Positions 19,402-22,049 are shown, counted from the first letter of the stretch. The stretch is 24,000 nt of DNA from Halarchaeum rubridurum (GCF_014647115.1 NZ_BMOO01000001.1:582919-606918), one strand, 5' to 3'. The notes: generated by a model not told the origin, from the sequence alone. Program-made: numbers and translations.

Positions 19402-19493
19402 TTGTGTCCGGTAGCCGGTTTCCCGTTATCAATCTTCCCGTCGGTACCCAAAAGAAAGCCTATAACGCCCGCGTCGCCAACCGTAGGCAGAGA
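19402..19493. promoter_or_regulatory. Divergent tatCt/tatCo promoter region
   Basis: GTTATCAAT (19425-19433; minus-strand ATTGATAAC) lies about 28 nt from the tatCt ATG at 19401. TATAA (19461-19465) lies about 31 nt from the tatCo ATG at 19494. Confidence 0.45.
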
Positions 19494-20762
19494 ATGGGAG
19501 ACGCACCGGACGGGCCGTCCGACGACGGGCCCGACGGGGACGACGCCGACGGCGAGGACGTCACCCACGCCGAACCGGTGGACACCGGCCGGATCGAGCC
19601 GGACGTCACCGACGTGAGCGAGGGCGACGCGACGGCCCCCGACGGTGCGACGACCGACGACGACAGCGAGACGGACGCCGACGCATCGGACGGGGACGAC
19701 GCGTCGGCGGAGGGCGCGGCGGACACCGCGGACGAGTCGGCGGACGACGCCGATGACGAGTCGGCGGACGACGCCGATGACGAGTCGGCGGACACCGCGG
19801 ACGACGGTCGATCGGACGGTGCCGACGACGCGGCGGACGAGGAGTACGCGGACCCGCCGGACGACGTCCCCGACACCGGCGACCCGTCCGTGCCCGACGA
19901 GGGGCCGACCGTCGCCGAGAGTGGCGTCGACCTCGAAGAACACACCGGCGAACACCGCGACGCGACGGAGGCGACGCCCGCGCCCGCGGACACCGAGGTA
20001 GACGCGAATGCGGACGTGGACGACGAGGGCGTCTTCGGTGAGGGGCCGGAGAGCGACGAGGAGCAGCCGGTTGCCGTCCACGTCGAGGAGATGGTTCGTC
20101 GCCTCGGCATCGTCGTCCTCGTCGCCGGCGTCGTGAGCGCGCTCCTCTTCCCCTTCGGCGACACCCTCATCACGTTCATCTGGGACGGCGTCCTCCCGGC
20201 GAGTTCGACCGCCCAACCGCACGTCTACGCGCCGCTCGAACTCATCGTCACGCAGTTCAAGGTCGCCTCCATCGCCGGCGTCGTCGTCGCGCTCCCCGTC
20301 ATCGTCTACGAGACGTACGCCTTCATGCGCCCCGGGCTCTACCCGCACGAGCGACGCTACTACCTCGCCGCGATTCCGACCAGCCTCGTCCTCGCCGTCG
20401 TCGGCGTCGTCTTCGCCTACTTCGTCGTCGTCCCGAGCGTGATGTCCTACTTCCTCTACTACTCGACGAGCGTCGCCAACGCCGCGCTCGCGCTCGGCTC
20501 GACGTTCAACCTCATCCTCGTCCTGATGGCCTACCTCGCCATCGTCTTCCAGATTCCGCTGTTCGTCATGCTCGCCATCATGATGGGGCTCACGACCCGG
20601 CGGTGGCTCGCCGACCGCCGCCTCCTCTTCTGGGGGGCGTTCGCCGGCGTCTCCTTCCTCGCCACCCCCGACCCGACCGGCGTCGCGCCCGTCGTCGTCG
20701 CCGCCACCATGATCGTCCTCTTCGAGGGGACGCTGTTGCTCCTCCGGTGGACCGGGAACTGA
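19494..20762 (+). CDS. tatC: Twin-arginine translocase subunit TatCo with an acidic N-terminal extension of about 200 aa
   Basis: The C-terminal 220 aa or so are a standard 6-TM TatC (FMRPGLYPHERR, FQIPLFVMLA, LATPDPTG). The N-terminus is Asp-rich and low-complexity. Start taken at ATG 19494; the track ORF begins at 19404. Confidence 0.88.
   Translation: MGDAPDGPSDDGPDGDDADGEDVTHAEPVDTGRIEPDVTDVSEGDATAPDGATTDDDSETDADASDGDDASAEGAADTADESADDADDESADDADDESADTADDGRSDGADDAADEEYADPPDDVPDTGDPSVPDEGPTVAESGVDLEEHTGEHRDATEATPAPADTEVDANADVDDEGVFGEGPESDEEQPVAVHVEEMVRRLGIVVLVAGVVSALLFPFGDTLITFIWDGVLPASSTAQPHVYAPLELIVTQFKVASIAGVVVALPVIVYETYAFMRPGLYPHERRYYLAAIPTSLVLAVVGVVFAYFVVVPSVMSYFLYYSTSVANAALALGSTFNLILVLMAYLAIVFQIPLFVMLAIMMGLTTRRWLADRRLLFWGAFAGVSFLATPDPTGVAPVVVAATMIVLFEGTLLLLRWTGN
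19731..19802 (+). repeat. 3 x 24-bp in-frame tandem repeat (DESADDAD units) inside the tatCo N-terminal extension
   Basis: GACGAGTCGGCGGACGACGCCGAT occurs twice and is followed by GACGAGTCGGCGGACACCGCGGAC. Confidence 0.85.
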
Positions 20763-20763
20763 C

Positions 20764-21077
20764 CCTCCATCTTTTTCCGCGAAGGGGTCGCGCGGAGCGC
20801 GACCCTCGACGCGCAAAAACATGGGTGAAAAACTCCCGAGCGACGGAGTCGCTCGGTGAAACGCGGCGCGAAGCGCCGCGTACGCTGGACTGCAGACTGC
20901 ACCGCGACGTTATAGGTTCAGCTAGCGAGCCGAACGCCAGCGTTCGCGCGAACGAGCGGTCCGAAGGACCCGGTAGTGAGCGATTCCCCGCGACGCTACG
21001 CGTCGCGGCCTTTTTCACCCATGTTTTTGCCGCGAGCGGTTCGCCGCAGGCGAACCCGAGCGGGAAAAAGATGGAGG
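20764..21077. mobile_element. 314-bp non-coding element with composite terminal inverted repeats (MITE-like, or a structured RNA gene)
   Basis: The 15-bp block 20764-20778 equals the reverse complement of 21063-21077. The 19-bp block 20814-20832 equals the reverse complement of 21011-21029. The interior is filled with perfect hairpins, and no credible ORF is present. Confidence 0.45.
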
Positions 21078-21078
21078 T

Positions 21079-21156
21079 TCAATCGTCCGCTTCTACGCCC
21101 TCGTTCGCCGGCGACACAGACCCCGTCCGATAGCCGTGCAGGTCCAGCGTCACGTG
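21079..21156 (-). pseudogene. Orphan duplicate of the last 25 codons of the PP-loop ATPase gene
   Basis: Encodes HVTLDLHGYRTGSVSPANEGVEADD-stop. The 73-bp segment 21084-21156 matches 21227-21299 at 72/73 positions, and the single difference is synonymous. Confidence 0.6.
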
Positions 21157-21166
21157 GTGCGACCAT

Positions 21167-21200
21167 CTTTTGCCGGGGGCAAAAGCTGGACCAAAAGCCG
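21167..21200 (-). terminator. Candidate terminator of the PP-loop gene: hairpin plus oligo-T tracts on the minus strand
   Basis: CTTTTGCC-ggg-GGCAAAAG (21167-21185) has a perfect 8-bp stem. Read on the minus strand, CGGCTTTTGGTCCAGCTTTTGCC supplies two T4 runs 15-50 nt after the stop at 21216. Confidence 0.4.
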
Positions 21201-21215
21201 GAGCAACCGTCGGCT

Positions 21216-22049
21216 CTAGTCGTCGGCGTCCGCTTCTACGCCCTCGTTCGCCGGCGACACCGACCCCGTCCGATAGCCGTGCAGGTCCAGCGTCACGTGC
21301 TCGAAGCCGACGTCCGAGAGGTGCTCGCGCGCCGCTTCGGCGAACTCGGTCGTGAGCGCGACGTCGAGTTCCTCTGGAGCGACCTCGATGCGCGCGAGGC
21401 CGTCGTGGTCGCGGACGCGGAACTGCTCGAAGCCCCACGTGCGAAGCAGCTTCTCGGCCTTCTCGACCCGCGAGAGCTTCTCCTCGGTCACTTCGAGGCC
21501 CGTCGGGATGCGCGAGGAGAGACACGCCATCGAGGGTTTCTCCGCGACGCTCAGGTCGTAGCGCTCGGCGATCTCGCGCACCTCGTCCTTCGTGATGTCC
21601 GCCGCACGGAGCGGCGAGTAGGCGTCGAGTTCGTCGACGGCGCGGAGACCGGGACGGTGACCCTCGCCGGGGTCGGAGGCGTTCGTCCCGTCACAGACGG
21701 TCCCGATGCCGAGGTCGCGCGCCGCCGAGAACATCTCGGAGAGGCGCATCGAGCGGCAGTGGTAGCAGCGCTCGCCGTCGTTCTCGACGAAGTTCGGATC
21801 GTCGAGCTCGCTGAAGGAGACGAGCTCGTGGCGGATGCCGATCTCGTCGGCGACGCGCTTGGCGTCCGCGAGTTCGGCCTCGGGGAGCGTCTCGCTCTTC
21901 GCGGTGCAGGCGACGGCGTCGTCGCCGAGCGCGTCGTGCGCGAGGGCGGCGACGACGGCGGAGTCGACCCCGCCGCTGAACGCGACGAGCACGCCGTCGC
22001 GCTCCGCGAGGGCGTCGCGGGCCGCGTCGAGTTTGGCCTCGACGGTCAT
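21216..22049 (-). CDS. PP-loop superfamily ATP-utilising enzyme (LarE-like / TIGR00268-type)
   Basis: 277 aa from the internal ATG 22049: VLVAFSGGVDSAVVAALA (SGGxDS PP-loop), ERCYHCR, GTNASD, ACLSSRIP. GGAGGTGGGAGG (Shine-Dalgarno-like) lies just upstream of the ATG. The longer track ORF has a basic, implausible N-terminus. Confidence 0.85.
   Translation of the reverse strand: MTVEAKLDAARDALAERDGVLVAFSGGVDSAVVAALAHDALGDDAVACTAKSETLPEAELADAKRVADEIGIRHELVSFSELDDPNFVENDGERCYHCRSMRLSEMFSAARDLGIGTVCDGTNASDPGEGHRPGLRAVDELDAYSPLRAADITKDEVREIAERYDLSVAEKPSMACLSSRIPTGLEVTEEKLSRVEKAEKLLRTWGFEQFRVRDHDGLARIEVAPEELDVALTTEFAEAAREHLSDVGFEHVTLDLHGYRTGSVSPANEGVEADADD

Follow-up and report, generated by a model that had tools for sequence, protein, structure and literature searches.

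The 314-bp element that lies between the convergent tatCo and larE genes of Halarchaeum rubridurum is a back-to-back dimer of one hairpin-rich, non-coding repeat module. The module belongs to a Halobacteria-wide extragenic repeat that is apparently undescribed, and its sequence makes it probable that it works as a bidirectional, REP/REPIN-like terminator that recombines between copies. Within Halarchaeum, modules have been gained at the larE|tatCo locus and the core of the dimer has inverted between its inner 20-bp inverted repeats; across the family, module parts have been swapped between copies. The element occupies positions 20764-21077 of the window, the whole 24,000-nucleotide stretch that was analysed (NZ_BMOO01000001.1:582919-606918). 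It had been singled out by a sequence-only reading as a candidate MITE or structured RNA; every detail of that observation is correct, and its interpretation is half right.

Anatomy of the 314-bp element

The element fills the whole gap from the tatCo stop codon (TGA, 20760-20762, plus strand, coordinates recomputed) to the stop codon of an orphan larE fragment (TGA, 21079-21081, minus strand), and its reported extent was reproduced. So was the outer block (20764-20778), a match at 15 of 15 positions to the reverse complement of 21063-21077. The inner block, described as a 19/19 match, is in fact longer and matches over 20 of 20 positions (20813-20832 versus 21011-21030). The inverted repeat reaches into both stop codons (TGAnCCTCCATC...). 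Neither block has a further copy in the 24-kb window with two to three mismatches allowed, and none of 100 shuffles matched either one. Each of the seven hairpins that had been claimed is perfect, and both the doubled GACTGCA and the low-GC patch GTTATAGGTT are present where they had been placed. Folding is predicted to be very strong on either strand (z = -10.9 for plus and -9.0 for minus), with 0 of 100 shuffles equally stable. A single stop-free frame of 104 codons spans the element; because such a frame is expected at 64% GC, it is not evidence of a gene, and the view that the element holds no plausible ORF stands.

What had been taken for the composite inverted ends of a transposon are instead the conserved blocks of two opposed module copies, the module in this form being ~120-155 nt long. 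The left module (20764-20888) is inverted and lies on the minus strand, where its 5′ start motif reads GCGTACG. Its terminal motif (20764-20778, reverse complement CCTCCATCTTTTTCC), hairpin B (20785-20805), central motif (20813-20833) and hairpin 0 (20862-20880) were read against family alignments, and hairpin A (20836-20856), then a TTCACC-like linker, fall between the last two. The right module (20925-21077) is forward on the plus strand and begins with a 5′ extension, followed by the start motif GCGTTCG at 20939, a compound hairpin 0 that includes GGTCC-gaa-GGACC (20958-20970), hairpin A (20988-21008) and the central motif CTTTTTCACCCATGTTTTTGC (21010-21030); hairpin B (21038-21056) comes next, and the terminal motif GGAAAAAGATGGAGG (21063-21077) closes the module. 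Covariance model R1, which was built from 74 copies and whose E-values are rough, matches the left module at 20767-20835 on the minus strand (69.7 bits, E = 6e-12) and the right module at 21008-21074 on the plus strand (89.7 bits, E = 3e-16). Over 152 nt, the right module is 85.5% identical to a single module on a plasmid of Halarchaeum CBA1220. The 5′ ends of the two modules are separated by a 36-nt spacer (20889-20924), which contains the two GACTGCA copies and the low-GC patch.

The stretches between the blocks had also been called unrelated in the two arms. They look so because parts have been exchanged at the conserved blocks. Identical blocks surround unrelated hairpins because the stretch enclosed by the inner 20-mers runs in opposite directions in the window and in L131, a metagenomic Halarchaeum sequence with the same dimer. 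In each arm, the outer ~70 nt are colinear in the two sequences, and window positions 20912..20767 and 21081..20942 match L131 in inverted orientation only. The 36-nt spacer is a shortened, inverted counterpart of the L131 core, which holds ~130 nt more.

A classical MITE, derived by deletion from a DDE transposon and moved in trans via its terminal inverted repeats, would account for the perfect 15-bp terminal and 20-bp subterminal repeats, for a non-coding length of ~300 bp and for a presence that varies among Halarchaeum relatives. These repeats, however, stem from two opposed modules, and most family members are single modules with one such 'end'. Known Halobacterium MITEs are low in GC and have target-site duplications; here, as noted before, the flanks (TGAC and GTTCA) are not repeated. 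No transposase or transposase-bearing element with matching ends was found in ~1 Mb of flanking sequence, in plasmids or in viral contigs. The inverted repeats on which the proposed MITE architecture was founded are present, but with neither a fixed-length target duplication nor an autonomous partner found, that origin is very improbable.

Distribution and layout of the module family

A sensitive BLAST search against plasmids returned partial matches on six haloarchaeal plasmid records, from Halarchaeum, Haloarcula, Halomicrobium, Natrinema and Natronosalvus. All are 'half' matches to 20925-21074 and all lie in unannotated intergenic DNA. From these matches we derived a single exact 21-mer pattern (CTTTTTCRYCSAHGTTTTTGC) and scanned a species-representative genome set, so that the counts are lower bounds. 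At least 120 stretches matched the pattern, and all but five among the matches listed come from Halobacteria; those five, which are bacterial, lack the remainder of the module. The module is present at more than 115 archaeal loci in at least 21 named haloarchaeal genera, and several genomes hold at least four to five seeded loci each, plus extra copies found with the covariance model. A matching terminal motif follows 32-116 nt downstream in 114 of the 123 archaeal instances among the matches listed. The element is thus a member of a non-coding repeat family, as its relatives in the plasmid search and the pattern scan demonstrate.

The shared layout reads hairpin 0-TTCACC-hairpin A-CTTTTTC-nnCCAT-GTTTTTGC-hairpin B-GGAAAAAG-ATGG. 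In fuller form, GCATCCG precedes hairpin 0 and GTTCACC follows it, the central block opens as GC-CTTTTTC-(A/G)(C/T)-CCAT, and linkers flank hairpin B. Modules measure about 65-155 nt, contain at most three hairpins besides the T5/A5 blocks, and vary among copies in their 5′ boundary. Halosimplex-type loci (L101, L048, L113 and L030 among them) carry an extra conserved TTCAGTnnnTnnCCTGYACTGA ~22 nt upstream of GCATCCG, and the 5′ boundary therefore differs between lineages.

Most often the family occurs as a single module without terminal inverted repeats. Among the matches listed, close pairs stand back-to-back at 12 loci, in tandem at about nine and face-to-face at none, and a ~29-nt spacer recurs in Halosimplex-type dimers. 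From this back-to-back pairing and the recurring spacer, we conclude that the 314-bp element is the standard dimer form for a convergent gene pair.

No family in Rfam matched the window at gathering scores, and at E ≤ 10 only chance-level hits (E ≥ 0.7) appeared, so the element, which the earlier reading did not recognise as SRP RNA or RNase P RNA, belongs to no known RNA family as far as that scan reaches. A full-text literature search for the conserved motif strings returned no paper containing them. In IMG/VR viral contigs, four sequences matched the pattern and all four fail the covariance model. With copies on only six plasmid records, we rejected a viral or plasmid origin of the family.

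Pairing, gene ends and probable termination

In 114 of the 123 archaeal copies listed, the module ends on its 3′ side in the exact reverse complement of a 4-mer from the central block. The variants of this pair (CCAT/ATGG, CCAC/GTGG, CGAA/TTCG and CGAC/GTCG) show zero mismatch in 72 sequences. In the hairpin that we tested, a U5/A5 helix stands between two 4-bp helices, set off from each by a G-G mismatch, and tandem G-A pairs and hairpin B follow. Over an alignment of 74 sequences, 90.4% of cells pair, versus 46-56% when the partners are slid; both-side changes occur in 186 cells versus 13-71 in the slid controls, and the covariation score reaches 0.26 versus at most 0.078. At pair 15-73, C-G is found 35 times, U-A 20 times and A-U 17 times, with none unpaired. 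The co-varying hairpins of the sequence-only reading are therefore borne out by compensatory changes across the family. Shared ancestry is not the sole source of this signal, because different 4-mer variants coexist within one genome (Halomicrobium katesii and Halorientalis brevis) and orthologous Halosimplex sites (L058 and L085) have differing matched 4-mers, CCAT/ATGG versus CCAC/GTGG. The same two sites share a TATA-like GA(A/G)ATTTATAAAAGAGGCC just past the module 3′ end.

The hairpins themselves are nearly all different in sequence, with 104-106 distinct among 109 copies. Their stems are almost purely Watson-Crick on both strands (G-U pairs, 2-7%), which made G-U versus A-C asymmetry uninformative as a test for an RNA strand. 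The triloops are strand-specific: in module orientation, C-GNA-G occurs 90 times versus 14 for C-TNC-G, and it frequently caps tandem G-A pairs, a combination that is very stable in DNA. These strand-specific loops argue, at the level of sequence, that the single-strand form of the T-rich strand, as DNA or RNA, is under selection.

Modules keep close company with gene ends. In 38 of the 114 copies listed, a gap of 0-6 nt separates the outer (3′) end from the stop of a convergent high-GC3 ORF, and in short forms hairpin A begins 0-8 nt past a co-directional stop. Strict but crude gene calls, based on ORF length and GC3, gave 13 convergent contexts (->M<-), 10 ->M->, 9 <-M<- and 1 divergent (<-M->) among 33 copies. 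A single divergent case in 33 indicates that promoter-side intergenic regions are avoided. Both module orientations are used relative to the preceding gene. Some modules sit 1 nt from the 3′ end of tRNA-Arg(TCT) or tRNA-Ser(GGA) genes (L038 2417-2574, L120 3433-3599 and L035 ~7760), where the tRNA 3′ end thereby runs into CCA(T/C)CTTTTTCC, that is, CCA followed by a T5C tract. Two back-to-back pairs enclose small ORFs (L023 5425-6428 and L088 603-1757), which shows that a pair of modules can surround a short piece of cargo DNA. The L023 ORF (164 aa) has no Pfam match and the L088 ORF (215 aa) is hydrophobic and membrane-protein-like; neither suggests a mobility enzyme.

Each strand of the module carries T5C, one reading CTTTTTC and its opposite CCATCTTTTTCC. 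In the element, one T5C tract lies at 20772-20777 on the plus strand, 10 nt past the tatCo stop, and is the proposed first terminator of tatCo; another lies at 21064-21069 on the minus strand, 10 nt past the ancestral larE stop. The plus strand has further T5C (21011-21016) and T5G (21024-21029) tracts, with equivalents on the minus strand. A terminator scan also picked out two intrinsic-terminator-like arrangements: hairpin A then CCTTTTTC (20988-21016, plus strand), facing plus-strand read-through, and a hairpin then GAGTTTTTC (20826-20856, minus strand), facing minus-strand read-through. According to Berkemer et al. 2020 (PMC7237163), intergenic termination sites in Haloferax volcanii share a T stretch ending at C, some of them preceded by a hairpin, and T5C in a reporter stopped 95% of transcripts in vivo in that species. 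The module resembles these sites in placing its T stretch ending at C just past the gene. It differs in being a conserved, repeated and recombining unit of ~100 nt with T5/A5 arms and co-varying 4-mers, which the H. volcanii terminators are not.

Terminator activity of the module is likely, judged from its sequence and by analogy with this other genus. With T5C on each strand, the module may serve gene 3′ ends as a bidirectional terminator or insulator. Transcription that enters at its outer end would meet T5C within ~10 nt of the gene's stop, and transcription from the other side would meet a GC hairpin, then T5C, then T5G. The dimer between convergent tatCo and larE would put a T5C tract first, and a hairpin-plus-T5C site as back-up, in the path of either gene. 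If so, a two-way T5C module shared across genera would account for the insulation of tightly packed convergent genes in haloarchaea, would serve annotation as a recognisable 3′-end landmark and would supply haloarchaeal genetics with a compact bidirectional terminator part. The T5 tracts alone would suffice to terminate, which leaves over the 4-nt pair, the A5 partners, hairpin B and the strand-specificity of the loops. They suggest that a single strand, as DNA or RNA, has a further role. The 0-6 nt gap to stops is likewise tighter than termination obviously needs, and could reflect a targeting mechanism.

An alternative reading is a structured non-coding RNA with a function of its own, either one of ~300 nt or one small RNA per module. 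The very strong folding signal, the compensatory changes and the strand-specific loops would suit it, and TTATAG lies ~25 nt upstream of the 5′ start of the right module. Each module nevertheless holds two T5 tracts on the structured strand, modules follow genes in both orientations, G-U pairs are rare on either strand and an Rfam match is absent. We rejected an own-promoter small RNA, since the regions upstream of 69 module starts share no conserved AT-rich or TATA signal. The single ~300-nt RNA closed by its ends, as previously envisaged, is unlikely because T5C tracts stand on both strands, with T5C and T5G inside the element, and no conserved promoter was seen. An RNA with its own function is, taken overall, improbable, and we consider the element to be neither a classical MITE nor a stand-alone RNA gene.

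Locus turnover and the spread of copies

The minus-strand neighbour of tatCo is larE, which encodes a PP-loop sulfur transferase, and the spacer between the two genes varies widely among relatives. It is empty in H. grantii (27 nt) and in H. acidiphilum (14 nt). A Halarchaeum MAG has 60 nt, filled nearly stop to stop by a 55-nt minimal unit, CCATCTTTTTGC-hairpin-GGAAAAAGATGG. Strain P4 has 182 nt with a T4-type relative, strain CBA1220 has 163 nt made up of a mini T4-type module and a duplicated larE end and then the ancestral 27-nt spacer, and L131 has 443 nt with the same dimer as the window. Presence thus differs between Halarchaeum relatives, from empty through minimal and T4-type to dimer spacers, as had been foreseen. 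In both dimer-bearing sequences (the window and L131), the ancestral spacer is gone and there is no target duplication, and the tatCo stop is TGA in this pair versus TAG in the other relatives that share the tatCo C-terminus.

Hairpin terminators are to be expected between convergent genes, and palindromes that arose by chance or as local terminators could in principle make up an ordinary, vertically inherited spacer. Tested against relatives, this explanation keeps almost no probability. The congener spacers of 14-27 nt (H. acidiphilum and H. grantii) are unrelated to the element, the same conserved 20-mer and 12-mer blocks recur in at least 21 genera, and shuffled sequences yielded no match at all.

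A stretch of 133 nt covering the tatCo 3′ end and the adjoining arm (window 20700-20832 versus L131 3702-3834) is 98.5% identical, versus 87-90% on the larE side. Because the two sides differ in this way, the comparison suggests a recent recombination tract that may end inside the element. Orthologous sites elsewhere keep the module with swapped parts or a changed 4-mer pair; this rests on hand-checked pairs only, tblastx clustering of flanks having been swamped by spurious GC-rich matches.

Next to the element, the minus strand holds a copy of the larE 3′ end (21079-21156), whose C-terminus ...EGVEADD* is the ancestral one, as in 275-aa orthologues. It is followed by a small T4-type module, CTTTTGGTCCAGCTTTTGCC ccc GGCAAAAGATGG (21157-21215, minus strand, palindrome 21163-21189), which lies between the larE-end copies, and by the new 3′ end of the live larE (21216-21299, minus strand), with its stop at 21216-21218, a C-terminus of ...EADADD* and the second repeat copy. 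The direct repeat of 73 nt (21084-21156 and 21227-21299) is identical at 72 of 73 positions and brackets the mini T4-type module. The insertion and the larE-end duplication are also found in Halarchaeum CBA1220 and are absent from H. grantii; strain P4 has a larger relative of the small T4-type module.

Such long flank duplications accompany 14-15 of 104 modules (~13%), the longest shared string in the control being 10 nt. What is duplicated is 18-95 nt from the 3′ end of the co-directional upstream gene, usually with its stop, directly after the module 3′ end. Across the family, we found no short target duplication, and only this minority with variable duplications of 18-95 nt. Neither DDE nor IS200/IS605 transposition fits duplications so long and variable. 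The junctions that were inspected showed no clear microhomology at the 3′ side. At L069 (4500-5060), three tandem units each consist of ~70 nt of a gene 3′ end, with its own stop, and a module; the gene-end copies are mutually similar and the hairpin B sequences are unrelated.

To look for a partner enzyme, we clustered ORFs within 3 kb of ~115 loci (~1 Mb of flanks) and found no enriched protein family; the largest clusters, ABC ATPases and PAS kinases, reach six loci. Neither tnpA nor tnpB adjoins modules in the flanks examined, and a TnpB/IscB omega-RNA or an IS605 right end, considered for the first 'half' matches, was set aside with no tnpB or tnpA nearby. No RAYT (Y1 HUH) gene lies near any locus, a search of flanks in which a single genomic copy is easily missed. 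In the literature searched, RAYT classes are reported only from Bacteria, and Archaea have IS200-type TnpA (Y1).

These results bear on a reading of the module as an element that moves as single-stranded DNA, like REP/RAYT sequences or IS200/IS605 PATEs, in which a Y1 HUH enzyme acting in trans would recognise hairpins on one strand and the CCAT guide would pair with an ATGG 3′ cleavage site. Several features would be expected of such an element: almost purely Watson-Crick stems with C-GNA-G triloops and tandem G-A pairs on one strand, a perfectly co-varying 4-nt pair with one partner exactly at a sharp 3′ boundary, the absence of a short target duplication, REPIN-like inverted doublets in abundance, and the occurrence of IS200-type TnpA in Archaea. 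The lack of any enriched protein family within 3 kb of ~115 loci and the restriction of reported RAYT-type classes to Bacteria stand against it, as do a conserved tag that is neither GTAG nor CGTC, a variable module 5′ boundary and duplications of 18-95 nt that IS200/IS605 transposition does not make. On balance we think this unlikely.

Our best guess for the spread of copies is recombination between modules, a dedicated transposase being less likely. Copying or recombination would take place at the conserved blocks, by template switching or gene conversion, and spread would sometimes duplicate 18-95 nt of the upstream gene's end. The candidates are thus block recombination or template switching, and an enzyme acting on single-stranded DNA. 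The 4-nt co-variation, the GNA triloops, the placement at stops and the flank duplications go beyond termination alone and would speak for a propagation or recognition mechanism.

The bidirectional-terminator reading invites comparison with REP, BIME and REPIN sequences, which have long been familiar from bacterial genomes and are mobilised by RAYT transposases. Like these, the modules are GC-rich, short and imperfectly palindromic, lie in extragenic DNA where genes end, and occur in many copies per genome, often as inverted doublets. They share conserved tags around variable stems, the lack of target-site duplication and a proposed part in termination and in the stability of mRNA 3′ ends. Unlike REP/REPIN sequences, the modules are archaeal, a domain from which RAYT classes are unreported; they are longer (about 65-155 nt, up to three hairpins plus T5/A5 blocks), their tags are CTTTTTC..GTTTTTGC and GGAAAAAG-ATGG rather than GTAG/CGTC, no repeat-flanked single-copy transposase gene was seen near ~115 loci, and ~13% of copies have long duplications of the neighbouring gene's end. 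We found no report of an archaeal REP-element equivalent in the literature searched. The family might, we suggest tentatively, be the first recognised archaeal counterpart of REP/REPIN: Halobacteria-wide, self-propagating and recombining bidirectional terminators, spread by an undescribed mechanism (hairpin recognition with a 4-nt guide/cleavage pair, or transposase-free template switching) that would set modules against stops and tRNA 3′ ends and sometimes duplicate up to ~95 nt of the neighbouring gene.

Neisseria Correia elements and pneumococcal BOX and RUP are small intergenic hairpin repeats that can supply terminators or RNA processing sites. Correia elements, which are bacterial, end in true terminal inverted repeats and duplicate a TA target. 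The module shares with Correia, BOX and RUP its small size, intergenic position, hairpins and apparent ability to supply terminators to neighbouring genes; it differs from them in that they are bacterial and unrelated in sequence, and from Correia also in the latter's terminal repeats and TA duplication. By analogy, the module would act most like REP/REPIN or Correia elements that supply terminators, and it appears to fall outside both the MITEs and the REP-RAYT elements.

Within the haloarchaea, the small mobile repeats (SMR) and PATE elements of Haloquadratum walsbyi invite comparison, a relation that appears to be one of concept. In Dyall-Smith et al. 2011 (PMC3119063), these are described in one low-GC species, often inside IS605-type elements, and their mobilisation is called enigmatic. 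As portrayed there, they resemble the module in being haloarchaeal, transposase-free, ~50-110 bp or longer and without target duplication, with inverted ends or near-terminal palindromes (PMC3119063). On that description the module family is set apart by being GC-rich, present in at least 21 genera, abutting stops and carrying T5C.

The tatCo ORF beside the element encodes a long, extremely acidic, low-complexity N-terminal extension (19404-20100, plus strand) with D/E/A-rich repeats such as DESADDADDESADDADDESAD, and the called lengths of tatCo orthologues range from 351 to 422 aa.
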